Shown piece after piece: positions 1-63,452 of a stretch of DNA of 63,452 nt. Location of the stretch: positions 1 through 63,452 of IMG/VR virus record IMGVR_UViG_3300005512_000028. One strand, given 5' to 3'. Position 1 is the stretch's first letter. Each line of letters starts with the position of its first letter. A model generated the notes under the pieces. It was not told the origin of the DNA and made no database searches. It worked only from the letters and a program-made list of their open reading frames with translations. The position numbers and the translations under genes were made by a program. Source of the stretch: a virus (lineage: Duplodnaviria; Caudoviricetes).

Positions 1-123
1 CTTGAGTCCGTACTTGGCGGCGACTGCACCAGAGCCTGTCCATCTGCCGTTCTTGTCACGGGGCTGGTGCGGACTGTAGTTGAGAACAGCGTACGCAGCC
101 TCGGCCGAGTCCATCGCCTTGGC
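1..123. repeat. Terminal direct repeat (same as 63330-63452); circular assembly overlap
   Basis: The first 123 nt are identical to the last 123 nt, and an ORF reads in frame across the join. Confidence 0.95.
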
Positions 124-2058
124 GATTCTCGCCATTCCCTCACGGTCGTCTTCCTCGCACGCACGGTGGTACTCCATCTCCAGTGCGTCGAGCTCGAATC
201 CGACCCGCTCGCTCAGTGCGGTCAGCTCCTTGCCCTTCCATCGGCTCGCTGCCTTCGCTGCACGCACCGTCTTGGTCTTGGGCTTCTCCCGCCGCATCGA
301 CTTGCGCACGGCGGTCATCGCCTTCCGACCACGCAGATGGCCTGCAGGATCCTCTCCGACGCTGGCCGGTATCCACGCGCATCTGCAGTTCGGGTGACGG
401 GGAATCAGGCCGCGTGCCTTGGCCACTGGCATGACTACGCCGTCGAGGGGCCTGCAGATCGGGCAGACCCGTTCGTCCTGCGCCGTGCTCCACTCGGCCA
501 TCATACCTACTTGCTCGACGCCCAGGTCCTCGAACGAATCGAGCTGGCCTTCTGCGTGCGCATGGATGATCTCCGTGCGCGCGAGCACGCGTGCGCGAGT
601 GCGATTGATACCCCTGATCTCTTTGTTGATCTGCCGTGCGATCTTGGCGGGGCCGTCTCCGTCCGCTATACCCTGTGCTAGAACGCGGCCTAGCTTCTGA
701 GACATGGCGTGTGAGATGCCATCGAGCTCCTCGAAGTTCCGTGTGGTGAGCAGCTTCAGTTTGCTGACGCGCTCGGGCTGGAGGAACGACGACCGGAGGA
801 ACTGCTCCTTCGATCCCCTCCAGTACTCTGCAGTCTGGCCTAGCTCTGGATGCGCGTCCGTGTACGCACGCATCGCGCCCTTGCGGTATGCGCTGTCGAC
901 GTACTTCGCCAACCACGGCTTGCCTTGGGAGTCCACGGTAAGGAGCTGCGCCTCGGTTTCCTTGCGAAACCATCGCTTGAACGCGAGGAGCTTCTGGTCG
1001 TCCGTGGCGAACTCGTATGCCCGCTCGCCTAGCTTATGAACGACCGCGTGCTCTGTAGCTGCATGGGCCAGACTGTGGTGTGCCGCCTTCGTCAGTTCGT
1101 CGTCGGCGGCGTTGAATGTTGGGCTGTAGTTGGCGGTGGGTCCGCCAACAACATCAAATGTGAACAGCGTGACGTCCGGAGAGCTCCATGTGTACTTACC
1201 GCCGGGACCGGGCTTCGCACTGGGTACTTTAACAGTCGGGTGTGTGATCCTCTCGACCCCCACTAATCGCATCCGAGTTCCCCTCGCCACCAGCATTTCG
1301 CCGCCTTCTGATAGCCTCCCACCTCTCTTGTGGATGGCGTCCATCCTTTTCTGGCCCTTCCGTGCTGCTTGTACAGTCACCGCCTTTTTCCGACCTCGTA
1401 TAACCATCATATTCCCGCTGGTTATAAATGTAGACGGCTGGATGGACGTGCTCATAAACGCACGCTCGGTCACCTCTGTTCCTATAAGCGCGCGTGCATC
1501 TTCAAGCTTTGATGGGAATTGCATACCGCCTACCCCCGCCGCGCCTCTGTATATATCGAAGTCGACCTCACTCCCTGCTCCAACAGCGGCGTCTAATCCC
1601 GATATAGCGGCTTGTACTTTGGGAGATGGCTCCTCTCCTTCCCGAAGGACACGGCCCACTTCATGGTACTCTTTGTGGGAGCCGAACCGCTCGTACTTCT
1701 GAAGAGCTTCTTTCGCCCCGGGTGTCTGTGCAATCGATTCTGCGTGCTTATCATACATCTCGTCCTCGATGACTTTACCCTCCTCCTCTGTGCGCCATTT
1801 ATGAGGAGAGGCGTCATCGCCACCACCACCGCCGCCTCCTCCACCCGATGTCCATCTGCCATCCTTGTCTCGCGGTTGATGCGGATTGTAGTTGAACACA
1901 CCAAGCGGCCTGTCCTTGAGGCCCAGTACGTCCTGCTGCACCAGCGCATAGAGAACCGCAGATCGCAATCGGAGGAAGCGCTTGTTCATCTCGGCCACGA
2001 ATCGACGCCGCAGCATCGTCGTGCGGCTCGGGTCGATCTTGAGTGGATTCGTGGCCAT
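1..2058 (-). CDS. MuF/SPP1 gp7-like head morphogenesis polyprotein, 5' part: N-helix, inserted ADP-ribosyltransferase, MuF core. Continues across the origin into topoisomerase IB (971 aa total)
   Basis: Manual translation shows no stop from the ATG at 2058 (TAATG overlap with the upstream gene) to base 1. Reads MATNPLKIDPSRTTMLRRRF...; ART motifs IYRG/FMSTS/SEGGEML; MuF motifs RARVLARTE, WSTAQDERVCPIC, IPRHPNCRC. Absent from the ORF track because it runs off the window edge. Confidence 0.9.
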   Translation of the reverse strand, partial: MATNPLKIDPSRTTMLRRRFVAEMNKRFLRLRSAVLYALVQQDVLGLKDRPLGVFNYNPHQPRDKDGRWTSGGGGGGGGGDDASPHKWRTEEEGKVIEDEMYDKHAESIAQTPGAKEALQKYERFGSHKEYHEVGRVLREGEEPSPKVQAAISGLDAAVGAGSEVDFDIYRGAAGVGGMQFPSKLEDARALIGTEVTERAFMSTSIQPSTFITSGNMMVIRGRKKAVTVQAARKGQKRMDAIHKRGGRLSEGGEMLVARGTRMRLVGVERITHPTVKVPSAKPGPGGKYTWSSPDVTLFTFDVVGGPTANYSPTFNAADDELTKAAHHSLAHAATEHAVVHKLGERAYEFATDDQKLLAFKRWFRKETEAQLLTVDSQGKPWLAKYVDSAYRKGAMRAYTDAHPELGQTAEYWRGSKEQFLRSSFLQPERVSKLKLLTTRNFEELDGISHAMSQKLGRVLAQGIADGDGPAKIARQINKEIRGINRTRARVLARTEIIHAHAEGQLDSFEDLGVEQVGMMAEWSTAQDERVCPICRPLDGVVMPVAKARGLIPRHPNCRCAWIPASVGEDPAGHLRGRKAMTAVRKSMRREKPKTKTVRAAKAASRWKGKELTALSERVGFELDALEMEYHRACEEDDREGMARIAKAMDSAEAAYAVLNYSPHQPRDKNGRWTGSGAVAAKYGLK

Positions 2059-2327
2059 TACCGGCGTCTCCGTGCCCTCGCCTGTTCATGCAGACATAGC
2101 TGTTCCTTGGCTTGCCTCTCCGCGGCGTCACTCAGCAGTCGCTCGTCGCTCTCGTTCGGAATACGGAGGCTGCCGCCATGCCACATCTCCTGCTGTCCGT
2201 GGCAGACCGACGTCAGCGACTGTATCATCTTGCACGACCACCAATTGCCAATGCCTCTCTCAGTAACACGCATCTGGCCAGTCGGGGTCATTACAATCAT
2301 CCCGATCTTGATCTCGTCTCGCTGCAT
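2058..2327 (-). CDS. Hypothetical protein
   Basis: 89 aa ORF with GGAGG RBS; its stop overlaps the MuF start. Confidence 0.6.
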   Translation of the reverse strand: MQRDEIKIGMIVMTPTGQMRVTERGIGNWWSCKMIQSLTSVCHGQQEMWHGGSLRIPNESDERLLSDAAERQAKEQLCLHEQARARRRR

Positions 2328-2517
2328 AGGGACCTCCCTGTGCTTTCAATGAGACTGCACTTCGGATTACCCGTAGCCAATGCATCACCAGCAGCACCCA
2401 CCGAGCCCATGGCCTAACGGTAACGTACACATGGACGGTCGGCTTGCCCGTTGTGGCGTCGCACACGGGGCCTCGCAACTCAAAGGTCTTGGCCCACCAT
2501 GGTTTTCTCGCTCGCAT
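2260..2517 (-). CDS. Hypothetical protein
   Basis: 85 aa ORF filling the operon gap; overlaps the next gene. Confidence 0.4.
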   Translation of the reverse strand: MRARKPWWAKTFELRGPVCDATTGKPTVHVYVTVRPWARWVLLVMHWLRVIRSAVSLKAQGGPYAARRDQDRDDCNDPDWPDACY

Positions 2518-2523
2518 AGGATA

Positions 2524-2784
2524 CTACGCCTCTGCCTGTGCGTCCTGTTCCTGCATCCGGCGGAACATGGCCGTGTCCTCAAACGACTTGGCCTTCTCGA
2601 ACTGGATGCCGTTGTCGCCCGTGAACGGTGACGTATGGTCGTTGTCACCATAGGCGATCTCGTCGGGGATGCCTTCGGGGAATGCCTCGCACGCGACGCA
2701 CTCGGTCATCTCCGTGCCGTCGGGCTGGATGATACCCAGGTAGTGCTTACACTTCCGCTTGCTGCAGTTCGGCTGCAGTAACAT
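2524..2784 (-). CDS. Small Cys/His-rich protein (CxAFPxGIP...H...GDNGIQF); candidate partner of the upstream zincin domain
   Basis: 86 aa, GGAG RBS, starts directly after the portal stop. Confidence 0.75.
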   Translation of the reverse strand: MLLQPNCSKRKCKHYLGIIQPDGTEMTECVACEAFPEGIPDEIAYGDNDHTSPFTGDNGIQFEKAKSFEDTAMFRRMQEQDAQAEA

Positions 2785-2794
2785 CGCTTGTCTC

Positions 2795-5700
2795 CTATTG
2801 CTTGGATGGGAACTGCTTGCTCATGAAGGTTTCAATGCCAGCGGGCAACGAGCCCGCCTGATAACGCTTGCACGTCCACGCGCTAAAACACTCGGCAAAA
2901 GCCTCTTCTCGGTTTGTCCCGGCGTACTCGGAAACGTGCTTGGACATCTGTCCGAGACCACCTGACCTTGAAACGGCCGATCTCCACTGGGGCGTGTCGG
3001 TAAGGTAATGACCTCCGTGCATATGGGCGTGATGTGCATCTACAGCGTGAGCAAGCTCGTGACGGTATATACCCTGCGTCGACCCGCCTACCACAAACGA
3101 CCCCCCGCCCACATGCACGATATTAGGTCGTCCTGTACCACCAGATCCAATTGTAATGCTATGGTCTAATGGATCATAAAACCCAGCCGCCTTTACATCC
3201 GACCGCGAACGCAATGAGGAGTTCGTCTTTGTTAGCGTAGGCGTGTCTTGGTAATTGATACGAGCTAGCCCCGCGCCGTCGATGCCATCGAATCGGCTCA
3301 CTATGTCTGCATGCTCGTCCGATATGTGATCAAGCTGCCGAGCAACCTCCCGCTCGCGGCTGGCCTTCAATCCAACTTCACTCACACAGTCTGCGCCTGT
3401 GTCGACCTCGTCACCGTACTTGTTGCGGACAGACACATGGCAGCCCTGCTCTTCCTCCAGCCTGTCTCTCGCCTTCTGTGTTTTGGTCTGCTTAGGTGCG
3501 GCTCCTGTGTCTGCGGGGCCGTCCGTCCACGACGACGTCTTCCCGGCATCTGGCTTGTTCGCCGCATCGTCCGTCTTCTTGCCGCCACCGGCTTTCTTCC
3601 CGTGGAACTCTGGATGCTCCTGCTTGCTCTTGTTCAGGGCGTCCGTGGCCCGATTGTACTCCTCGGTCCGCTTGGCCTTCTCCTCGTCGGAGAGTCCCTT
3701 CTGCCTCATCCGTGTGTAGGCGCGCTGCCTGTCCTTATAGAGCTGCTTGACGTCGTCCGGCGCTCCCTCTGGAGGTAGCTGCAGCGCGCGCTGTTCGCCA
3801 CCGCCGCCGCCTCCACCTCCAGCGCCGCCGCTGCTCCAACGGCCGTCCTTGCCTCGCGGCTGATGCGGATTGTAGTTGGCTGTCACGCCCTCGTTCTGAA
3901 CGTCGTCGTCCTTCTGGTCATCGAACGGGGCAAGGAACACCACAACATAGAACGTGGCGAACTCGCCGTCGACGTTTCGCACGAACGTAGTCTGCCATCC
4001 GTCCCAGTGGTCATAGACCTTGACGGACTTCACCCAAGACGCGGGAATCTTTCCCTTATGGTAGAAGGCAGTGCCCTTGCCGTACGCCTTCGTTTCGGGC
4101 CCCGCGTCCGCAAAGAGCGCCTTCCCCTTCGGCACCTGAATCTCGACGATGGCGGGCTCGCCGCCGCGACCTCTCACTACAGAGGTGTCTCTGGCGTACT
4201 GGTCGGCCACGGACTTCTTCGAGCTGACATAGACCTTCCCCTTCTGGCCTCCGTCATACACCTTGGGGTCGTAGTTGCGGAACTTGGCCGGGGTGATCCC
4301 GTGCTTGGCTATGTCATTGGCGCGCTTCTCGGTCGTGCCGTGGAAGAACCGACCGCCTGCAGTCCGCTTACCGTCCTTGCCTCGTGGCTGCTTAGGATTG
4401 TAGTTGGCAACAGCGCCGTCAAAAGGGCGCTCACCTTCGTTCTGGACGCCGTCGCCCTTCGGCTTGTCGTCCTTCGGCTTGTCGTCGTCCGGTCCGTCTC
4501 CACCCTCGTCGTCCTCGTCCGACGCTGTCTCGGCCGCGTACTTCTCGGCCTCCTTGATCACGGCCTCGGCCCGATCGGGCTCCATACCCAAGACGTCGAT
4601 GAAGTACAGGGACGGAGGGTACAACTGGTCAACGCCACCGCCAACGTACTTCGCCATGGCCTCCGTCTGCTTTTGGGCCACGGCTGCCTTTTCCTCGTCG
4701 GTGACGGAGTTGAGATCTGGCCACTCGACGGTGTACTCCTTCGGCTCGGGCAGAGCGCCAACTGCAATCAACCGGTCGACGAGCGGCCTGATCAGCATGG
4801 GCGTCAGGTACTTATTCTGCCGCTTGGCCACCCGCTTGTTCCACGCCCGTGCGTCCTGAGAGGACGCGAGCTGTGCCTGCTCGGACCCAAACAGAATCCT
4901 GAACGGTATGCTCTTGGCGATTGCAATCGCCTTGAGGTGCGTGTCGACATGGGTATTGGGTGCGGATACCTGCGGGGACAGTGGCTTGGCGGTTACGCCC
5001 GTCAGCGCCAAGTACCGCTGCAGGCCGTTCGAGTAGTTGAGGAACTCCTCGCGGAGGGTATCGGCGTCAATCGTCGCCCCCTGGTTGACCAGATCGGGAT
5101 TGACCTCAAACGCCATGCCCGGGAATCCGCCGCGCCAGAACATCTCGCCAGAGCCACTGAGAATCTTGCGGAGATCGTACAGGCGGTTATAGACGTCCTT
5201 CATCCGTGGCGTGCCGTAGACCTCCGACATACCAAGGCCATCGGCAACGTGGATCACCCGTGTCCAGTGCACTCGCCGCGTGGTTTGGGACGCATTGACG
5301 TCGCCGGAAACGGCAGACCCGTCTTGGAATTGGATGTTGTACGAGATGGGTCGTCCGTAGCGGGGGCTGTCCGTGCTGGTCTCTGTACCCGCGACGGTCA
5401 CTACGCTCTCGTCGAAGACGCGCATGAAGATCAGGTCCGCGGTGGCCTTCCCCTCCTTCTCGCCTGTCTTCTGGTTCACTCCATTCGCGGGCTTCGACAA
5501 ATCCTCGCCGTCGTCCAGTCCGAGCAGCAGTACACCAAACCGGCCGATGCCCGAAAGCTCGTCGATGCGATGGAGGTAATACCAGAGATTCTTGGCGTCA
5601 TTGAGATCGCCAAGCGCGTCCTCAAACGCGGTCCTAGATGCGTCCTCCGTCTCAAAGACGATCGGGTCCATCGACCATGACTCTTCGGGCATGCATCCGA

Positions 5701-5968
5701 CCACGCGTTTGGCGATGCCTTCGCGGTCATACATCTCTCTGTAGAGATGCGCCGTGATGTCATCGGGGTAGCCGCACTCCGCATTGAAGTCGCGGTCGGT
5801 GCCATCGAGAAGAGTCCGCAGCAACTCGGACCGTGCCAACGACGCGTTCTGGATCAGCTCGCGGACCTGCGTCATCGCCTTCATCTGGTTGGCCGTGATG
5901 TCGGGGCCCTTCTTGGCCTGCGTGCGTTTCGCACGGACAGTCCGCTTGCCTGTTGATGCCTTAGCCAT
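2795..5968 (-). CDS. Portal protein (DUF1073-like) with two C-terminal tagged cargo domains: Tpt1/KptA-like ART fold and HExxH zincin
   Basis: Follows TerL; portal motifs (YDREGIAKRVV, RVHWTRVIH, IPFRILFG, VEWPDL) in about the first 480 aa, then FFHGTT...VYVS and YRHELAH...SEYAGTNREEAFAE. Confidence 0.9.
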   Translation of the reverse strand: MAKASTGKRTVRAKRTQAKKGPDITANQMKAMTQVRELIQNASLARSELLRTLLDGTDRDFNAECGYPDDITAHLYREMYDREGIAKRVVGCMPEESWSMDPIVFETEDASRTAFEDALGDLNDAKNLWYYLHRIDELSGIGRFGVLLLGLDDGEDLSKPANGVNQKTGEKEGKATADLIFMRVFDESVVTVAGTETSTDSPRYGRPISYNIQFQDGSAVSGDVNASQTTRRVHWTRVIHVADGLGMSEVYGTPRMKDVYNRLYDLRKILSGSGEMFWRGGFPGMAFEVNPDLVNQGATIDADTLREEFLNYSNGLQRYLALTGVTAKPLSPQVSAPNTHVDTHLKAIAIAKSIPFRILFGSEQAQLASSQDARAWNKRVAKRQNKYLTPMLIRPLVDRLIAVGALPEPKEYTVEWPDLNSVTDEEKAAVAQKQTEAMAKYVGGGVDQLYPPSLYFIDVLGMEPDRAEAVIKEAEKYAAETASDEDDEGGDGPDDDKPKDDKPKGDGVQNEGERPFDGAVANYNPKQPRGKDGKRTAGGRFFHGTTEKRANDIAKHGITPAKFRNYDPKVYDGGQKGKVYVSSKKSVADQYARDTSVVRGRGGEPAIVEIQVPKGKALFADAGPETKAYGKGTAFYHKGKIPASWVKSVKVYDHWDGWQTTFVRNVDGEFATFYVVVFLAPFDDQKDDDVQNEGVTANYNPHQPRGKDGRWSSGGAGGGGGGGGEQRALQLPPEGAPDDVKQLYKDRQRAYTRMRQKGLSDEEKAKRTEEYNRATDALNKSKQEHPEFHGKKAGGGKKTDDAANKPDAGKTSSWTDGPADTGAAPKQTKTQKARDRLEEEQGCHVSVRNKYGDEVDTGADCVSEVGLKASREREVARQLDHISDEHADIVSRFDGIDGAGLARINYQDTPTLTKTNSSLRSRSDVKAAGFYDPLDHSITIGSGGTGRPNIVHVGGGSFVVGGSTQGIYRHELAHAVDAHHAHMHGGHYLTDTPQWRSAVSRSGGLGQMSKHVSEYAGTNREEAFAECFSAWTCKRYQAGSLPAGIETFMSKQFPSKQ

Positions 5969-6014
5969 AGGGCTAATCCTTTCGGTCGGGGTCTTTACCC
6001 GGTCGACCCGGCGG

Positions 6015-6368
6015 CTACTTCTGGTTCAGGTACTTCACAATGTCGAATATGGGTGCGTGCTCCACGGACCCCTTGCCCATCGAACGGTCCCGGTCCCACA
6101 GCTTAACGATCTCGTCGTCCGAGTACCCCTTGTCTCGGAGGTACTTGTGATCGCTCTCACTGTAGTTGGGGTGGGCCATGACCTGCTGGGAGGTCTTGCG
6201 CGACGCCCCACCACCACCGCCACCTCCGCCGCCTCCACCGGTCGACGCGAAACGACCGCGCTTGTCACGGGGCTGCTTGGCGCTGAAGTTCATCACCGGC
6301 AACTCGAGCGGTGTCTCGTCAACGGGGACGCCGTCGTCGATCACGTTCACAATCATGCCCGTTTTCAT
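6015..6368 (-). CDS. Small tagged cargo protein (VMN|FSAKQPRDKRGRF, poly-Gly, unknown helical domain)
   Basis: 117 aa, AGGAG RBS; shares its leader with 6390-6887. Confidence 0.8.
   Translation of the reverse strand: MKTGMIVNVIDDGVPVDETPLELPVMNFSAKQPRDKRGRFASTGGGGGGGGGGGASRKTSQQVMAHPNYSESDHKYLRDKGYSDDEIVKLWDRDRSMGKGSVEHAPIFDIVKYLNQK
6202..6320. repeat. About 120-bp near-identical repeat, copy 1 (encodes DETPLELPVMNFSAKQPRDKRGRFASTG-polyG)
   Basis: Matches 6727-6848 with a few synonymous changes and one Gly codon fewer. Confidence 0.9.
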
Positions 6369-6389
6369 CTGTACTCTCCTACACTATCA

Positions 6390-6887
6390 CTAGTCGAATC
6401 GGATACGATCTCGGATGCTGATGACGTGGTCGGTCATGCTGCTCGACTTCAGCGTGGCCGTGCGTCCCTTCTTCGTCCACGTCTTGTTGGGGTGTCCCAT
6501 GTGGAGTGCGCCCGGCGGGGAGGTATCCGCCTTACCCCACTTGGCGCTGATAGCCCTCTCCACGCGTGCCCTCTTGCCACTCACCGCGAAGTGAGCTTCG
6601 CCCATCGCGGCAGAGTACGAGAGCTGGCCGACCTCCAGTTTGTTAGACGCGAGGCCCTTTCGCAAAGTAGATGCGTCGTTGAGGGGCGTCCGCTTGCTCT
6701 CCGCGTCGGCAGAGCCCGCTGCGGATGACGCCCCACCGCCGCCGCCTCCACCTCCGCCGCCTCCACCGGTCGACGCGAAGCGACCGCGCTTGTCACGGGG
6801 CTGCTTGGCACTGAAGTTCATCACCGGCAACTCGAGCGGCGTCTCGTCGCTGGGCCGCGTGTCTGCGTTGACCAGAAACCCATGCAT
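6390..6887 (-). CDS. Small tagged cargo protein (same leader, different C-terminal domain)
   Basis: 165 aa, starts immediately after the TerL stop. Confidence 0.8.
   Translation of the reverse strand: MHGFLVNADTRPSDETPLELPVMNFSAKQPRDKRGRFASTGGGGGGGGGGGGASSAAGSADAESKRTPLNDASTLRKGLASNKLEVGQLSYSAAMGEAHFAVSGKRARVERAISAKWGKADTSPPGALHMGHPNKTWTKKGRTATLKSSSMTDHVISIRDRIRFD
6727..6848. repeat. About 120-bp repeat, copy 2
   Basis: Matches 6202-6320. Confidence 0.9.
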
Positions 6888-6888
6888 G

Positions 6889-8352
6889 TCATCGTCCTTT
6901 CGTTACCGCCAACCCACCTACCCGTATGTTCGGCTTAGTCAGCAGCGCAAACGCGCCACTGGACGCATCCACTTGGTCTTTATACGTCGAGTGAGGGAAG
7001 TACTGCAACTCCGATATATAGTCATTATTCCACGGACCCTCGAGCAAGGCGACGTTGCCGCTGTTGACCTGCACTGCATACGGGTCGGCCCGGAGGACCT
7101 TGTTGCCAACGGGCCTGTCGATGCGAACACGAAAGCCACGCAGATTCTTCGCGGTGTTCTCGGCGCTCTCCTTACCACCAGAGCCCGGCTCCTGCTCGAC
7201 GCCAATGATCACATCGATACCATCGGACTTGGCCGTGTCGAGGATAATGATCTCGCGCTGGCTCGCGTCCCACTGGCCTCTCCGTACGTCACTGACCACG
7301 ATTCGGCCGCTCTTCTCGAGGTCCAATCGAGCGCCCACCGTGTACGCCCCTCCGTCCGCAGTGCCCGCCTTGTCCCAGTAGCGGACCGAGCGGACGATCT
7401 TCGTAACAGTAGGCACCGTGCGTACGAGGGCCACCTTGAACATCCCGCCGCCGAGGGGCACGGGCGATTGGAGGAACTGGCCTGCGTATCCGTACTCGCC
7501 CATCCGCGCTCGCATGGCCTCGAGCATCTGCTTTGGCAGGCGTACGGGGTCCATCAAGCCGTCGGTGTACTTCCGATAGAGGCGTCGTGGACGGACGCGG
7601 CTGCGGTCGGCGCGGTCGACCTCGGCGGGCAAGCAAATGTGACGGACGCTGGCTTTGCCCTCCTTGGCCATCCGTAGCATCACGCCGGAAGGGTCCTCTT
7701 GGTGCAGTCGCTGCATGATCAGAATCGTCTGGGCCACGACCTTGTCGACCTTTCGCGTTGGGAGCGTCTCCGCGAGCCAGCGATTCGCCGCCTTCATCTC
7801 GGCCTCGCTAACGGCCTGGTTGGGGTCGAGCGGGTCGTCGACGATAATGAAGTGGCCGTGCATGCCTGTCACGCTACCGCCGGTCGACACGGCCACGCGC
7901 GATCCTCCTCGCGTGTTGGCGAAGTAGCCCTTCGTGTTCTGGTCGTCGCGGAGGCCTACGTCACCGAAGAGGCGTCGGTACTTATCGCTCTGGATGATGT
8001 CGCGGCACTTTCGGGAGAGGTCCATCGCAAGCGGATAGGCGTACGATCCGCAGATGCTCCTGCACGTGGCCATTCGCGTCCACGTCCACGCGGGGAACAT
8101 CACCGAGCAGACCGTGCTCTTGGTCGTGCCGGGACTGATGTTGATGACGAGTTCGTACGGAGACGGCAGGCCTGCAAACACGCGCTCGGCGGTAGCCTGT
8201 AGCTCGTCGCAGAGGACACGGATGTGCCAGTTCCAGACGGGGGTTTCGGGGATCACCGTGTCCCAAAACCGCTGGACGAACTCATAGAACGAGTCGCGGC
8301 AGATCGACGCCTCGAGCTGGTCCCTGCTCACCGTGGCCCGCTTAGCCCTCAT
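6889..8352 (-). CDS. terL: Terminase large subunit
   Basis: Walker A-like ISPGTTKST, Walker B IIVDD, MQRLH, nuclease YWDKAG and KDQVDA. Confidence 0.95.
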   Translation of the reverse strand: MRAKRATVSRDQLEASICRDSFYEFVQRFWDTVIPETPVWNWHIRVLCDELQATAERVFAGLPSPYELVINISPGTTKSTVCSVMFPAWTWTRMATCRSICGSYAYPLAMDLSRKCRDIIQSDKYRRLFGDVGLRDDQNTKGYFANTRGGSRVAVSTGGSVTGMHGHFIIVDDPLDPNQAVSEAEMKAANRWLAETLPTRKVDKVVAQTILIMQRLHQEDPSGVMLRMAKEGKASVRHICLPAEVDRADRSRVRPRRLYRKYTDGLMDPVRLPKQMLEAMRARMGEYGYAGQFLQSPVPLGGGMFKVALVRTVPTVTKIVRSVRYWDKAGTADGGAYTVGARLDLEKSGRIVVSDVRRGQWDASQREIIILDTAKSDGIDVIIGVEQEPGSGGKESAENTAKNLRGFRVRIDRPVGNKVLRADPYAVQVNSGNVALLEGPWNNDYISELQYFPHSTYKDQVDASSGAFALLTKPNIRVGGLAVTKGR

Positions 8353-35757: not shown

Positions 35758-36083
35758 GGGCCTGAATTGGTATCGACCAGATGCAGAAGCTGACGCTACG
35801 TGTCGAGGTCGCCGGTAGGCCTCGCTAAACAACCGGCGCGGCACTTAACTGCCACCCCGATGAAGATGGCGGCTTAGCCGCCCGTCCTACACAACGACGC
35901 CGATGATTGTGTAGGGCGCACGGTATCGGCTACCTTCGGAGCGGTGCAAGGCAACCGCTGCCCTGGTGGATTCGGTGTGGACGCCCCCGCAGCACGGATA
36001 CTCGTCGGCCGGAAACGACGGGACGCACGTGAGGCCGAATGCCAAAGCATCATGGGACCCGGGTTCGATTCCCGGCAGGTCCA
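35758..36083 (+). ncRNA. ssrA: tmRNA; tag (A)ATPMKMAA at 35851-35877
   Basis: Acceptor GGGCCTG/CAGGTCC+A with G3-U, TGGTATCGAC, PK1 CGAGG/CCTCG plus GCCGGT/ACCGGC, TAACT-GCC resume context, GGAC-CCGGGTTCGATTCCCGG T arm. Confidence 0.92.
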
Positions 36084-36095
36084 GTAGAAAGGAAG

Positions 36096-58088: not shown

Positions 58089-59144
58089 CTACGCCGCAGC
58101 GCCGTGCACCAGACCGCTGTTGCTGTTCTGGTCCAGCCGAATCTGCGGGACGAGAATGCACATGACCTTGAAGTTCAGCTGGAGGCCGCCCTTGCTCTCC
58201 CACTGAACCGTTGTGATCTCCATGCCGACGACGACACGGACGACGTCGCTGGTCATCTGCACCAGCAGCAGCGTGTAGCCCGTGAGGTAGTCGAGCGTGT
58301 CGACGCCCTCGATGCCGTTGATCTTGGCCAGCCGCTCGCGGAGGGTGTTGTCGCCCTTGCTCGTCGAGTAGTCGGCGTCCATGTACGTGTCCCAGCTCGG
58401 GGAGCAGTACAGTTTCCACGGGCCGTAGTGATACGCGTCCTGCGACTGCTTCCGCATGGCGAGTACCTCTTCAACCGTCTGGGCACCAGTCCACCCGCTG
58501 GAGGTCGGGTTGGTGAGCACCTTGGTCAGACGACCGGTCCGGTTGGTGTAACCGTAGATCGTGCCGCCGCCGTAGGTGTACGAGGACGCCGTGCCAAGCG
58601 TGAGCTGCTCGGCCATCTCCGCGACCCGGCGACCCGCCAACTCCGCGGTCGTGGTGTCGAGCGGGCTGCCGCCGTTGCGGCTCGCCATGATCTGGCGGGC
58701 GCTGAACCCGAAGTCCTTGTGGATGATCGGGAGGGGCAGGTTGGTCAGCTCGAACTCGGGCCGATCCGCATTGCTCTCGCGGAGGCCGTCCATGCTGATG
58801 GAGGCCTCGGTGATGTCGCTCATGGTCTCCGTCTCGAGCACCGTCTTGCCCATGCCGTTGGGGATGACGTACTCGAGGCCCCGACCACGCAGGTCGGCAA
58901 CGGCACGGAGGCGCGGCTTGGCTGCCTTCACGACAGCCTCGTCCAGCGTCTTCCAGTCGTCCTTCCGCAGCGTCGCCGTCGCATTGTGAATCGGCACTGC
59001 CTTGATGGTGCCGCCCTCGTTGACGGTGATGTAGCTCCTGCCGTCCTTGCCCTGCCAAGGACGCAACGCGTTGACGTTGCCATGCACCTGCATGATGCGG
59101 CTCGCAACGTCACCGTGCGCCTGGCCATTCAAAACGTAGTCCAT
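58089..59144 (-). CDS. Major capsid protein (HK97 fold, encapsulin/linocin-like)
   Basis: TLRKDDWKTLDEAV, PLPIIHKDF, TIYGYTN; follows protease and decoration genes. Confidence 0.9.
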   Translation of the reverse strand: MDYVLNGQAHGDVASRIMQVHGNVNALRPWQGKDGRSYITVNEGGTIKAVPIHNATATLRKDDWKTLDEAVVKAAKPRLRAVADLRGRGLEYVIPNGMGKTVLETETMSDITEASISMDGLRESNADRPEFELTNLPLPIIHKDFGFSARQIMASRNGGSPLDTTTAELAGRRVAEMAEQLTLGTASSYTYGGGTIYGYTNRTGRLTKVLTNPTSSGWTGAQTVEEVLAMRKQSQDAYHYGPWKLYCSPSWDTYMDADYSTSKGDNTLRERLAKINGIEGVDTLDYLTGYTLLLVQMTSDVVRVVVGMEITTVQWESKGGLQLNFKVMCILVPQIRLDQNSNSGLVHGAAA

Positions 59145-59748: not shown

Positions 59749-61248
59749 CTAGTCGAACGTCATCGCCGGAGGCGTCAGAGGCTCCTCCTCCTCGTTGCCC
59801 GTGATGTCGGCGGGCTCGGCCATGCCGTCGTAGACGGCGGGCTTGGCCCCGGCCGTGGCCAGCGCCGCGATCTTCTCGAGCTCTCCGATGCTCTTGGTCG
59901 CGAGCTGCTCCTTCGTGAACGTGTTGGCCTTGTTCGCGGTGATGACGGTCACGATCCTCTGGCGCTGCGCCTTGTGGGCACGAACGCCTGCCTCGAGCAT
60001 GTCCCGCATGCCCTCGGGAGCGTTGGCGATGAACTCCTCGACCGTCTGCGGCGGCTCTTCGTTGCCGTCCTCGTTCTCCACGGGCTCGTCCTTGTCCTCG
60101 GACTCGTCCTTGTCCTCGGGCTCGTCCTTGTCCTCGGACTTCTCCGCGTTCTGGACGCCCGCTGCGATCTTCGTCAGATGCGCCTCGTCGAACGCGAGCA
60201 GCGCGTCCCTGTCATCCTCATCCCAGTCCGTGTTGGCGTTGCTGATGAGGTCCTCGACGACCTGTTCCTTGTCCATCGCTTGCTCCTTGTTATGTGTTAC
60301 CCGTTTACCGTCTGTGCCTGTATAGCTCACGACGCGCCTCACTTCCTTCCGCCCCGCAAGGTCAACGGAGGCCGTCTTGGTCTTCTTGTCGAACGTGTAC
60401 GACGCGCTGTACATCTTGCCGTCGTCCTCATAGATGAAGTGCTTGTCGAACACCTCCACTACATACACGGCCGCGGCTGGCATACCCACCGGGTTCGTGG
60501 CGGTGTCTGAGAGTTCGGTGCGGATGGCGGCTTCGATGTCCTGATGGGACGACGCGTTGTCGATTCGCCGCATGGCCAGTACCATGGCGATCTCCGCGTC
60601 ACTCATCGCCGGGTCCAACGCGGCGTTCTGCAGTAGGCCCGCCCCGTCCATGACGCTGCACGCCCCCTTCTTGTCGGGCAGCAGCGCCAGGTGATCCGGC
60701 CGGAAGTTACTGACGGTGCCCGTGTAATCCTCGTTGTTCCACGTGCCCGCCACGCCATCGATGTCGGTGAACAGGCCAGTGGAGACCTCCATGACCTTGC
60801 CTTCCTCCAGCGCGGCGAGCACCCGCTCGTCGACGGCACGGAGGCGATCCGGCTCCAGCCACGCGTCTGCCTTGAGCTTGCCGCCCTCGACGCGCGTGTT
60901 GAGGATGACGCCCACCTTGCGACTGGTAAGGACGTCGGGGTCGCATGCGGACACGGGCCTGCCGTTCATCGTCGGATGGTAGACTACGATGGGCTTGTGA
61001 TTCCAAACGCCCGCGCTCTTCTCCAGCTCGTCCGGCGAGTAATACAGCGGGCCGTTGGTGCCGTTGTGGACGCCCTCAGTGATCATGACCATGGGAGCGA
61101 CGAGCCAGTCGCGTCCCTCCATCTGGTCGTGGCGTACGGAGGGCTTGACGTTGGCGGTGACGGATTGGAGTGCGTTGAACACGGTGACGCGTTCTGCGAC
61201 CGCTGATTCGTTCGCCACCATTCGCGTCCGCTTCGATTTGCGAGGCAT
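59749..61248 (-). CDS. DUF2213-like prohead protease plus scaffold
   Basis: EGVHNG, WNHKPIVVYHP, EVSTG, PDHLALLP..GACS..DGAG; acidic scaffold C-half. Confidence 0.88.
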   Translation of the reverse strand: MPRKSKRTRMVANESAVAERVTVFNALQSVTANVKPSVRHDQMEGRDWLVAPMVMITEGVHNGTNGPLYYSPDELEKSAGVWNHKPIVVYHPTMNGRPVSACDPDVLTSRKVGVILNTRVEGGKLKADAWLEPDRLRAVDERVLAALEEGKVMEVSTGLFTDIDGVAGTWNNEDYTGTVSNFRPDHLALLPDKKGACSVMDGAGLLQNAALDPAMSDAEIAMVLAMRRIDNASSHQDIEAAIRTELSDTATNPVGMPAAAVYVVEVFDKHFIYEDDGKMYSASYTFDKKTKTASVDLAGRKEVRRVVSYTGTDGKRVTHNKEQAMDKEQVVEDLISNANTDWDEDDRDALLAFDEAHLTKIAAGVQNAEKSEDKDEPEDKDESEDKDEPVENEDGNEEPPQTVEEFIANAPEGMRDMLEAGVRAHKAQRQRIVTVITANKANTFTKEQLATKSIGELEKIAALATAGAKPAVYDGMAEPADITGNEEEEPLTPPAMTFD

Positions 61249-61385
61249 ACATAACTCCCAATAAGATAAGGGGCCCGTTTCTGTAACAGGCCCCTTGCTG
61301 GGTATCTGCACGCGATCTTCGATTGTGCATATGCTATACGATGGCAACCTACAGCGATGTGCATCCCCAGTCGAGCAAGAATCTC

Positions 61386-61585: not shown

Positions 61586-62464
61586 TCAGTCCGCCTGCAG
61601 GTCCGTGTCCACTATCGTCAACGACCCGATCCGCCGCACTCCTCGTACCTTCAGAGAGGAGCCCCGCGGCAGCAGCATCTCTCCCTCGTCACCGAGCCCG
61701 CCAGAAACCCACCGCGATGTATTCAGCGCGTGCGTTCCCTTCGGGGCGTCAATCGTCATCACCACCGCGTGCTTCTGGCCACCCCCACGGGAGAAGTCAA
61801 TCGCGGCCGACGGCTTCGCGGTCGTCGACATGAATGCCTTGTCCTGAATGACGCCGCCGACCTTATACGAGGGCGGCGTGTCCATGCCTATGCCCCTGTA
61901 CAACGTGGTGTCCTTCCCAAGAGGCGTCGACTTGGAGATGGCAGAGTCTATGTCGGCGGCGTCCTTGTGATCCTTCCCCTTGCGGAGGCGTGTGTTTATG
62001 GAATCCCACTTCGCCTCGGAGACATAGCCGCGCACGGCGGTGTGTTCCTCTGCCGTGAACGAGACGCCCTTCGCTGTATCCACGGCCTTCTGCTGTCCCG
62101 CGTCCCCTTCCAACTTGCGCTTGGCCACGAGGTTGCTCATCGAGTCGACCACCCGTGCCTCTTGCTCCGGCGTTGTGGCTCTCTTGAGCTTGGTCTCATA
62201 GAACCCGCGCTCCATCGGGTCGAGTTGCCCTGCTAGCTCCTGCGGCGTGTCGCTACCCCCACCGCCACCGCCGCCTCCTCCGCCCGACGTCCACTGCCCG
62301 TCCTTGTCACGCGGTTGATGCGGACTGTAGTTGGACACTATCTCATCGTCATCGGGGTCGGCGGGGTCGAATCCAAGCTCGCGCACCACGTCCGGCGGCG
62401 TCTGGTTCATCTCGACGTCGTCGGGGTCGTAGTCCAGACCCATCTCTTTTGGCACCCTGCTCAT
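61586..62464 (-). CDS. Tagged ADP-ribosyltransferase (R-S-E, VIP2/Alt-like)
   Basis: Acidic leader, VSN|YSPHQPRDKDGQW plus poly-Gly, INTRLR, LYRG, FMSTT, DEGEMLLPRG. Confidence 0.9.
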   Translation of the reverse strand: MSRVPKEMGLDYDPDDVEMNQTPPDVVRELGFDPADPDDDEIVSNYSPHQPRDKDGQWTSGGGGGGGGGGSDTPQELAGQLDPMERGFYETKLKRATTPEQEARVVDSMSNLVAKRKLEGDAGQQKAVDTAKGVSFTAEEHTAVRGYVSEAKWDSINTRLRKGKDHKDAADIDSAISKSTPLGKDTTLYRGIGMDTPPSYKVGGVIQDKAFMSTTAKPSAAIDFSRGGGQKHAVVMTIDAPKGTHALNTSRWVSGGLGDEGEMLLPRGSSLKVRGVRRIGSLTIVDTDLQAD

Positions 62465-62471
62465 TGATACC

Positions 62472-63452
62472 TCATGGCTTAATTGGCGTGAAGACACGCG
62501 GGTTGATATAGCTCTGAAGCGCGACGACGGGTGTGTTTCCTAACTGCGTGGAAACGCGTCCCGCTACGTCCATGACGGATGCCTTGTACTCCTTCATATT
62601 CTTGGCCTTGGGCATGTCAGCTACCATCGCGCGTGCGGATGTCGTTCCCTTCAGCGTGCGGTAGTCCTTGGGCTTGTACTTACCACCGGACACCGCCTTA
62701 CTATACCCTCGCATCTTACCATCCGTGGTATCGAACAATCTACCACGGGGGCCCGCCTTTTTCGCCCGTGCTAGGACGTCTGCACGGACAGCCTTGTCTT
62801 CTACAGGTATAGAAAGGCTGACCCCCTTCTTGCCTACGAAGTCCAGTCTGACGTCAGAGCCGTTTTGAACGACGTGCCTCCCCTGCAGCGTCGTGGCACC
62901 GTACGCCTGCTTAGCCGCCTTCGTATCGCGCGTGCTACCGGGGCGGATGCCTGTTACCTGAACCAGTCGTAGTGCAGACGCCGCCTCTGCCGTGTCGTGG
63001 TCTTTGCTGACGGCGTCCTTCGCTGTCTTTGCGAACAGCGACTTCTGGTCGCGCTCGAGTGCGGTCACACGTTTGAACTTAGCCTCGCCCTGCTCCTTCG
63101 AAAACTTCTCCGAGTATATACGCACGGTGCGCCCCTTGGCGTCTTGGCCGACCGCCTGTACCTTCGTCGCGGGGTTATCGCTGACGTAGGCGTCCGTCCA
63201 ACCAGGGGGAATCGGCCTGCCGTCTAGGGTGTGACTGCCTTCGCCCTTCCGTACCATAACGGGGTCGCCGTGCTTGTTGACTCTGGGTTTGCCATCCTTG
63301 TCCAGAGCAGGCGTGGCCTCCGCGGCGGGCTTGAGTCCGTACTTGGCGGCGACTGCACCAGAGCCTGTCCATCTGCCGTTCTTGTCACGGGGCTGGTGCG
63401 GACTGTAGTTGAGAACAGCGTACGCAGCCTCGGCCGAGTCCATCGCCTTGGC
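62472..63452 (-). CDS. Topoisomerase IB domain; 3' part of the MuF polyprotein starting at 2058
   Basis: IPPGW, GIRPG, FVGKKG, KDYRT, LGNT, SYINP; in frame with 1-2058 through the terminal overlap. Confidence 0.9.
   Translation of the reverse strand, partial: AKAMDSAEAAYAVLNYSPHQPRDKNGRWTGSGAVAAKYGLKPAAEATPALDKDGKPRVNKHGDPVMVRKGEGSHTLDGRPIPPGWTDAYVSDNPATKVQAVGQDAKGRTVRIYSEKFSKEQGEAKFKRVTALERDQKSLFAKTAKDAVSKDHDTAEAASALRLVQVTGIRPGSTRDTKAAKQAYGATTLQGRHVVQNGSDVRLDFVGKKGVSLSIPVEDKAVRADVLARAKKAGPRGRLFDTTDGKMRGYSKAVSGGKYKPKDYRTLKGTTSARAMVADMPKAKNMKEYKASVMDVAGRVSTQLGNTPVVALQSYINPRVFTPIKP
63330..63452. repeat. Terminal direct repeat (same as 1-123)
   Basis: Exact match. Confidence 0.95.

Follow-up and report, generated by a model that had tools for sequence, protein, structure and literature searches.

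The head module of the virus record IMGVR_UViG_3300005512_000028 (IMG/VR, Caudoviricetes; the window analyzed here is the whole record of 63,452 nt) repeatedly encodes one conserved peptide, referred to below as the tag, in front of different protein domains. It is probably a signal, so far undescribed, by which proteins carried within the capsid are loaded or released. Seven distinct copies lie in frame within long open reading frames (ORFs) of the minus strand, all between the genes for the large terminase (TerL) and the prohead protease candidate. They follow the pattern N-[YF]-[SN]-[PA]-x-Q-P-R-[DG]-K-x-G-x-[WFR], in which N, Q, P, R, K and G are invariant in 7/7. A preliminary description of this DNA had listed these copies, confined them to the terminase-to-protease interval and noted poly-Gly after five. 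All seven are recovered in frame at the positions in Table 1, where 40-87 is the terminal-repeat duplicate of 63369-63416. The recurrence is genuine and far from random. Neither a six-frame regular-expression search nor a profile scan of the whole record (8 matches, the 7 copies and the duplicate) finds the tag elsewhere in the record. Runs of 8-12 Gly follow 5/7 copies and are absent after the copies that precede topoisomerase IB (TopoIB) and at 4364-4411.

Nucleotide identity to the reference copies is only 62-75%, with differences at synonymous third positions; what selection maintains is therefore the peptide and not the DNA. The exception is a pair of small neighboring genes, ORF117 and ORF165, which share a 120-nt block with 92% identity and unrelated flanks on both sides. 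This block spans the end of the leader, the tag and the Gly run, and points to recent duplication or conversion of the header alone.

In the window, effector domains are fused to MuF (PF04233 with TopoIB and an ADP-ribosyltransferase, ART) or to the portal (PF06381 with a 540-aa extension), and further tags head the domains of ORF303, ORF117 and ORF165. The cargo assignments of the preliminary description stand in part. TopoIB is matched by PF01028 (59.4 bits, cut-off 23.7, E = 4.4e-16) and also by PF21338, and the ART of ORF303 by PF03496 (55.5 bits, cut-off 23.4, E = 6.2e-15) and an Alt-like PHROG. The ART inserted in MuF (PF03496, 20.6 bits, cut-off 23.4) and the zincin at the end of the portal fusion (ATLF PF07737, 17.7 bits, cut-off 27.4, E = 0.003) are sub-threshold matches only; the latter carries HExxH and a downstream E-x-x-F-A-E-x-F. 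The domain at 3869-4348 had been called Tpt1-like, a label that finds no specific support: PF01885 does not match at E ≤ 5, and ART toxins align better. Its AlphaFold2 model (pLDDT 75.5) gives Foldseek matches of E ≥ 0.13. VIA-align ranks ART toxins first (Z 6.7, root mean square deviation 3.4 Å, 112 aligned residues), with Tpt1 entries at Z 4.8 and 3.5. The family alignment has FHGT..Y..E-type columns and no Pfam model. Judged from these models, the domain looks like a member of the ART superfamily and not like Tpt1. With an iterated profile this family is found ~60 times as a tag-headed module, 49 times in the representative proteins, 10 times in loci (L040, L050, L052, L054, L056, L071, L074 and L077 among them) and once in the window. 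The small cargo domains of ORF117 and ORF165 match no known family, and among proteins of 90-289 aa the only relative of ORF165 is ORF117, via the common header.

A profile of 21 tag sequences, searched against 1,835,955,588 cluster representatives, matches 3100 proteins at E ≤ 1e-3, 587 at ≤ 1e-10 and 29 at ≤ 1e-30. The best 150 of the profile-matched proteins, on which the statistics of position and spacing are based, are large (up to 3849 aa) and contain 3-9 copies each at a median spacing of 240 residues (10-90% range, 152-436). The consensus over 696 instances is [VL]-x-K-[YF]-[SDN]-P-[DSN]-Q-P-R-D-[ED]-x-G-[RK]-[WF]-T-[SD]-G-G-G, with the conserved core [YF]-x-P-x-Q-P-R-D-x-x-G-[RK]-[WF]-[TS]. 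R and G are present in 100% of instances, D in 93% and W/F in 97%. The invariant Arg is located ≤40 residues from the N-terminus in 67/150 proteins and equally close to the C-terminus in 2/150; in 9 it is ≤15 residues from the protein start. Natural proteins are known in which Met and 2-8 residues are followed directly by the tag, an arrangement that fits the idea of a mature cargo beginning at the tag. Comparative sequence data thus assign the tag to the domain after it and indicate that genes can begin right at the tag. AlphaFold2 run on a 30-residue tag alignment gives a core pLDDT of 82 and a bridge from the invariant Arg to the Trp, a weak hint that suggests a tight hairpin-like turn. Identity at the variable positions is 0.40 within a protein vs. 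0.20 between proteins, and covariation inside the tag reflects subfamilies only. Cleavage after Asn, proposed earlier from the window copies, is not supported as a general rule: position -7 is a fixed Asn in this genome, but elsewhere it is mostly K (43%) or A (16%), and N in only 4%.

Packaged effector fusions are a known kind of system, and their shared header appears to be undescribed. No Pfam model covers the tag in 8 tag-rich proteins, 10 locus proteins or the window proteins, and no NCBIfam model at E ≤ 1 does so in the 8 tag-rich proteins. A profile search of the PDB with the tag returns 0 chains at E ≤ 10. One PHROG without known function (phrog_38358) matches the tag stretch of ORF117. 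A full-text literature search for QPRD-type strings found no description of the motif, and the passages that word searches returned (figures and supplements apart) from papers on polyvalent proteins, MuF toxins, polymorphic toxins and NAD/ADPr do not mention a shared header.

In viral sequences the tag is tied to the head genes. Pattern scans of IMG/VR gave 8, then 80 loci. In 82 viral loci 135/135 tag-bearing ORFs are on the seed strand, and none in opposite-strand frames. Removal of near-duplicates leaves 96 ORFs, 85 of which were scanned with Pfam (the 11 longest were dropped for size). Portal models of four families match 21/85 (Phage_portal 10, Phage_portal_3 9, Phage_portal_2 1, Portal_Mu 1), followed by ADPrib_exo_Tox (10), Phage_Mu_F (8), Zeta_toxin (6), ART (3) and DRAT (2). 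Further families are TopoIB, 2H, GNAT, RelA/SpoT, Peptidase_S78_2 and, in 1/85 each, ATLF, LPD3 and ART-PolyVal. The 26 top-scoring giants contain MuF (7), GNAT (7), DUF7178 (4), ART (4), PARP (3), TopoIB (2), Acb1 (1) and Portal_Mu (1), and none of the 25 families listed for them is a conjugation marker. Downstream of the tag genes, 36 diverse viral loci (123 neighbor ORFs) carry various head genes, including the proteases Peptidase_S78_2 (6), DUF2213 (5) and Peptidase_S78 (4), at least five capsid families, MuF (4) and minor capsid protein 2 (in 3). Tags also stand before, or after, protease domains in L002 and L006. The comparative data, in which unrelated domains follow the tag, support the earlier proposal of a portable header on different head-module cargo domains. 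The tag also serves as the search handle that had been foreseen, since its profile retrieves thousands of proteins, and those that were scanned are rich in portal, MuF, ART, GNAT, zeta-toxin, TopoIB and Acb1/2H domains.

In two cultured actinophages, Mycobacterium phage Predator (gp14; L009, 6022-7230) and Nocardia phage P3.1 (L154, 4501-5656), a very basic protein of ~240-250 aa begins with Met and 2-5 residues, followed by the tag, and is annotated as 'capsid maturation protease'. The next gene encodes a JAB/M67 (JAMM-motif) metallopeptidase, which is a possible processing enzyme. A short-peptide tblastn search of 50,697 GenBank phages, an insensitive method, hits only cluster-H mycobacteriophages (13 records) and phage P3.1. 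The same insensitive method finds nothing better than E = 6 in plasmids, an absence that means little. The head region of phage Mu contains no tag (best score, 2.6 bits).

A scan of bacterial genomes with one genome per species and the pattern limited to K or D two residues after the invariant Arg yields 56 loci, 53 of them confirmed by the profile. The hosts are Alphaproteobacteria (many Hyphomicrobiales, Azospirillales), Oscillospirales, Planctomycetota, Sorangium, Actinomycetes, Bergeriella and Nitrospinota. Large ORFs carry the tags at 17/53 loci, mostly about as far from the start as in a portal, and 12/17 have a head-family match (iterated profiles). The remaining 36/53 hold only ORFs of ≤450 aa composed of a helix-like N-terminal leader, the tag and a variable C-terminus. 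Strict confinement to head modules, as noted in the preliminary description for this genome, is therefore not supported as a general rule; in viral contigs the linkage with head genes is tight. The neighbors of 21 loci, mostly from the small-gene set, are largely cellular genes. Homologues of 13/42 leaders occur in IMG/VR contigs, so that some of the small-gene loci are prophage-borne. Tandem paralogues with the same leader and tag and different C-termini are found in L109 (four), L119 (three), L125, L106 and L101 (two each); the arrays at L125 (8602-10516), L109 (1-5292) and L119 (526-2511) are in alphaproteobacterial chromosomes. A small conserved ORF is located directly downstream in several chromosomal tag-gene families. 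In L125, the C-termini of the two paralogues match the CdiA-CT RNase A toxin domain PF18431, and ten other small tag proteins have no Pfam match. The chromosomal tandem arrays look like an unrecognized class of polymorphic toxins with no secretion system nearby, and by their sequence organization the tag also marks the junction of polymorphic-toxin-like cassettes.

Tentatively, the tag can be interpreted as a docking and processing header for capsid-delivered effectors. The cargo module would consist of the header, a flexible Gly-rich linker and an effector domain, attached by phages to capsid-interior proteins. In the procapsid, the hairpin-like epitope of the header would be recognized by the assembly core, most likely by an assemblin-type prohead protease/scaffold, for which the DUF2213 protein would be the candidate in this phage. 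The header would be at once a docking signal and the boundary at which a module is severed from the portal, MuF or a neighboring module, and the freed domains would leave the capsid along with the DNA. Genes beginning at the header would represent a 'pre-cut' form of the same module, and the chromosomal helix-header-toxin genes the same module as a polymorphic-toxin cassette. A release function is favored by the polyprotein-like arrangement and by the retention of the tag in portal and MuF fusions, which are already capsid-targeted; presumably, a portal-bound domain could not be ejected unless cut off. Docking, in turn, is favored by the bias of the tag toward the N-terminus and by genes that begin right at it. 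That docking and release are combined is a best guess, modeled on the targeting-plus-cleavage signals of the T4 type.

A docking and processing header is also favored by the ART inserted in MuF, which has a full tag on one side and a half tag on the other. The tag-Gly9-ART segment is an insertion in a variable linker that separates the conserved N-terminal helix of MuF from its remainder; in the homologues of L085 and L002 the same two parts are joined directly, without insertion or half tag. The half tag (N-Y-S-P, in the context ..G-P-T-A-N-Y-S-P..) lies at the C-terminal edge of the inserted ART and is preceded by T-A as in the 3836-3883 copy. Apart from the tags, it alone matches N[YF][SN][PA] in the six frames. 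Two interpretations are possible, a scar left by recombination or a second boundary like the start of a tag.

As for the protease candidate, H75, S140 and H170 of the DUF2213 domain are invariant in 18 aligned homologues, which fits a putative Ser-His-His prohead protease. The protein, which we take to belong to the assemblin-type prohead serine protease clan, matches the PHROG 'head maturation protease' (E ~1e-6), and Pfam lists the family as uncharacterized. A complex prediction of the DUF2213 domain with the tag gives a score of 0.02 (mark, 0.32) and speaks neither for nor against their interaction. Other candidates for a general partner or enzyme were rejected. MuF is not universal as a partner, with matches at 27/139 loci (12/36 viral; iterated profile of limited sensitivity) and, with Pfam, in 4/123 neighbor ORFs. 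For an ATLF-like zincin as universal processing enzyme, the signature occurs in 24/150 proteins, any HExxH in 67/150 and ATLF in 1/85 viral tag ORFs. Self-cleavage at a conserved nucleophile is unlikely, the position after the Trp being T in 59%, S in 14%, A in 11% and G in 7%.

Several points weigh against a docking and processing header, the support for which is wholly comparative. The proteases of tag-bearing phages belong to three or more Pfam families and their capsid proteins to five or more, a diversity that fits poorly with a single near-invariant recognition site of 14 residues. The residues upstream of the aromatic are weakly conserved, with no P-side cleavage motif visible. An upstream cut would remove nothing of note from proteins that begin 2-8 residues before the tag, and cutting the MuF insertion at both ends would split MuF. 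Not every cargo is headed, as a 2H domain follows the portal in L071 without a header. Among the chromosomal small-gene loci 30/36 have no head gene within 10 kb and 6/36 have one (limited profiles), and L125 adjoins TRAP-transporter and CoA-transferase genes, with two downstream ORFs that have no phage match.

A possible, though doubtful, alternative is that the header is never cut and is instead a cargo-loading peptide that binds a conserved capsid-interior component (the luminal face of the HK97 fold, or DNA), each domain being tethered by its Gly linker. A polyvalent protein would accordingly have several anchor points and be ejected as a single chain. The diversity of proteases among tag-bearing phages is more readily accommodated by such a tether, but the capsid families are equally diverse, with at least five Pfam families. 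Binding to the HK97 fold would agree with the match of the window capsid protein to the encapsulin family Linocin_M18; as for DNA binding, the basic character of the tag is slight, and its conserved Asp is often joined by another acidic residue, a composition atypical of DNA binders. The tag spans 13 residues with an aromatic at both ends and a predicted turn, and is longer than usual protease sites. The flexible Gly linker after it, the N-terminal asymmetry (67 vs. 2 of 150) and the tags at the very N-terminus also suit a tether. However, portal and MuF fusions, which need no tether, retain the tag, and portal-bound cargo could not exit the capsid.

A much broader claim, which seems unlikely, is that the tag is a universal cross-phylum address label for HK97-fold capsid interiors, such that any carrier would be loaded in trans into phage or gene transfer agent (GTA) heads and delivered with the DNA, chromosomal toxins with immunity-like neighbors included. 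If this were true, polymorphic toxins and anti-defence enzymes would share the capsid as a general route of protein delivery (secretion), and capsid cargo could be listed from sequence alone by means of the motif.

Less likely still, the header may act in the recipient cell, docking the delivered domain to a conserved bacterial factor (a chaperone, a protease, or a component of the ribosome or RNA polymerase) for refolding, release or activation. This would account for a core that is near-identical across Alphaproteobacteria, Oscillospirales, Planctomycetota, Myxococcota, Actinomycetes, Neisseriaceae and Nitrospinota while the phage partners vary, and for tags that head toxin-like genes outside evident prophages. 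But it would make the tight link to head genes in viral contigs incidental, tags are also found at the head of protease/scaffold proteins and of basic proteins that look structural, and no candidate host partner was found. Least credible is a recombination joint only, a coding stretch kept for cassette swaps between genes or phages, a role that has been proposed for the junction motifs of polymorphic toxins, and devoid of a biochemical role of its own: the block common to ORF117 and ORF165, the ART module in MuF with its half-tag scar, the tandem paralogues with identical leader and tag and different C-termini (L125, L109, L106) and the higher identity at variable positions within proteins would all fit, but the other window copies have diverged at synonymous positions, and the conservation of R, G, D and W/F across phyla with different codon usage indicates peptide-level selection.

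The window resembles known systems to different degrees. In passages of four papers (Zhang et al., 2012, PMC3482391; Iyer et al., 2017, PMC5512222; Jamet et al., 2017, PMC5576092; Iyer et al., 2022, PMC9503650), effector fusions of polyvalent, MuF and portal proteins are described, in which MuF, portal or prohead protease is joined to ART, 2H, GNAT, zincin and TopoIB domains, or such domains are strung together in giant proteins. Their genes belong to the head module, and the papers infer packaging and injection and propose processing by peptidases. Like them, the window has effectors fused to MuF and portal and encoded among terminase, portal, protease and capsid genes. A header common to the domains is not mentioned in these passages; here, one conserved peptide marks the start of each module and ties small genes that stand alone, as well as toxin cassettes in chromosomes, to the same system.

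In T4 and giant phages, internal proteins have N-terminal targeting or propeptide segments that are removed by the prohead protease (T4 gp21; SPN3US gp245). Like the tag, the T4 targeting sequence is a short N-terminal element on unrelated internal proteins, including an ART (Alt), and it is tied to prohead incorporation and maturation cleavage. In contrast to this phage-specific, short and removed element, the tag has 14 residues, crosses phyla and occurs internally up to 9 times per protein, with no sequence likeness between the two. Encapsulin cargo-loading peptides are short conserved peptides on a flexible linker that mark unrelated cargo for the interior of an HK97-fold shell. The tag shares with them its shortness, the Gly linker and the position terminal to the cargo; its consensus differs, and the shells belong to several capsid families. 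In polymorphic toxins, junction motifs occur for example before CdiA-CT or at the Rhs core end. The tag loci are similar in having a constant N-terminal part with variable C-terminal toxins (L125, L109, L106, L119, L101), tandem cassettes and small downstream immunity-like genes. They differ in that the junction sequence is another one, that the N-terminal part is a short helix, portal or MuF and not a secretion-system domain, and that the tag also repeats between successive domains.

Phage proteins that are packaged and co-injected are the first molecules to meet the host defences, and at present they can be recognized only by MuF or portal fusion or by proteomics. With a header of this type, anti-defence, host-takeover and toxin domains that are injected could be found systematically from sequence only; most domains behind the tag have no Pfam family. 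It would also give a handle for loading chosen proteins into capsids, and would unite phage polyvalent proteins, MuF polymorphic toxins and small chromosomal toxin cassettes in one system. The selection and release of internal proteins would become testable via four invariant residues.

The record is a complete genome of ~63,329 bp, circularly closed or terminally redundant (IMG/VR class direct terminal repeat, DTR; CheckV completeness, 100%), with a 123-nt repeat at its ends, and the MuF fusion gene crosses the junction. The head genes follow the order TerL, ORF165, ORF117, portal, MuF, ORF303, DUF2213, decoration and major capsid protein, all on the minus strand (Table 1). The MuF domain is matched by PF04233 (1.2e-17) and by a PHROG for head morphogenesis. 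When the genes after the two fusions are checked for an immunity-like ORF, an 86-aa ORF is found after the portal fusion, whereas the gene after the MuF fusion is ORF303.

Table 1. Coordinates of tag copies, cargo domains, head genes and other features of the window (aa, amino acids)
Feature	Position	Strand	Remarks
Direct terminal repeat	1-123 = 63330-63452		123 nt
Large terminase	6889-8352	minus	upstream bound of the tag-bearing interval
ORF165	6390-6887	minus	leader, tag, Gly run, 128-aa domain without known family
Tag	6777-6824	minus	near ORF165 N-terminus; Gly12
ORF117	6015-6368	minus	leader, tag, Gly run, 77-aa domain without known family
Tag	6249-6296	minus	near ORF117 N-terminus; Gly11; stretch matched by phrog_38358
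Common block of ORF117/ORF165	6201-6320, 6729-6848		120 nt
Portal fusion	2795-5968	minus	1057 aa with 540-aa C-terminal extension; PF06381 at ~4652-5740
Tag	4364-4411	minus	portal extension; R replacing W/F; no poly-Gly; heads the ART-superfamily-like domain
Predicted ART-fold domain	3869-4348	minus	portal extension
Tag	3836-3883	minus	portal extension; Gly-rich run; heads ~165-aa region without known family, then zincin
Region without known family	3329-3823	minus	portal extension
ATLF-like zincin	2798-3328	minus	portal extension; sub-threshold match
Small ORF	2524-2784	minus	86 aa; directly after the portal fusion
MuF fusion, first part	1-2058	minus	continues across the junction into 62472-63329; order: N-terminal helix, tag, ART, MuF domain, tag
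Tag	1852-1899	minus	Gly9; heads the ART inserted in the linker after the MuF N-terminal helix
Inserted ART	~1264-1734	minus	sub-threshold match
Half tag	1120-1131	minus	C-terminal edge of the inserted ART
MuF domain	~373-696	minus	PF04233
Tag, repeat duplicate	40-87	minus	duplicate of 63369-63416 via the terminal repeat
Tag	63369-63416	minus	between MuF domain and TopoIB; no poly-Gly
MuF fusion, C-terminal part	62472-63452	minus	tag, then TopoIB (~62523-63110)
ORF303	61586-62497	minus	55-aa leader, tag, Gly run, ART (~61634-62062)
Tag	62291-62338	minus	Gly10; heads the ART of ORF303
DUF2213 protein	59749-61347	minus	prohead protease/scaffold candidate without tag
DUF2213 domain	60538-61200	minus	
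Major capsid protein	58089-59144	minus	DUF6260 / encapsulin-like HK97 fold
tmRNA gene	35758-36086	plus	full length

A tag-like 'GKDGR' at the N-terminus of the capsid protein is not conserved in homologues and was treated as a coincidence. The closest portal among GenBank phages is that of the haloarchaeal virus Halorubrum phage Hardycor1 (33% identity over 38% of the query), and the tag variants and the portal C-terminus of the window resemble those of prophages of Oscillospirales, e.g., Flavonifractor (L091). Apart from the head module, the phage carries a full-length tmRNA gene (Rfam RF00023, 76.2 bits vs. a gathering score of 47, E = 8e-28), which is also called by ARAGORN and encodes the tmRNA tag peptide ATPMKMAA.

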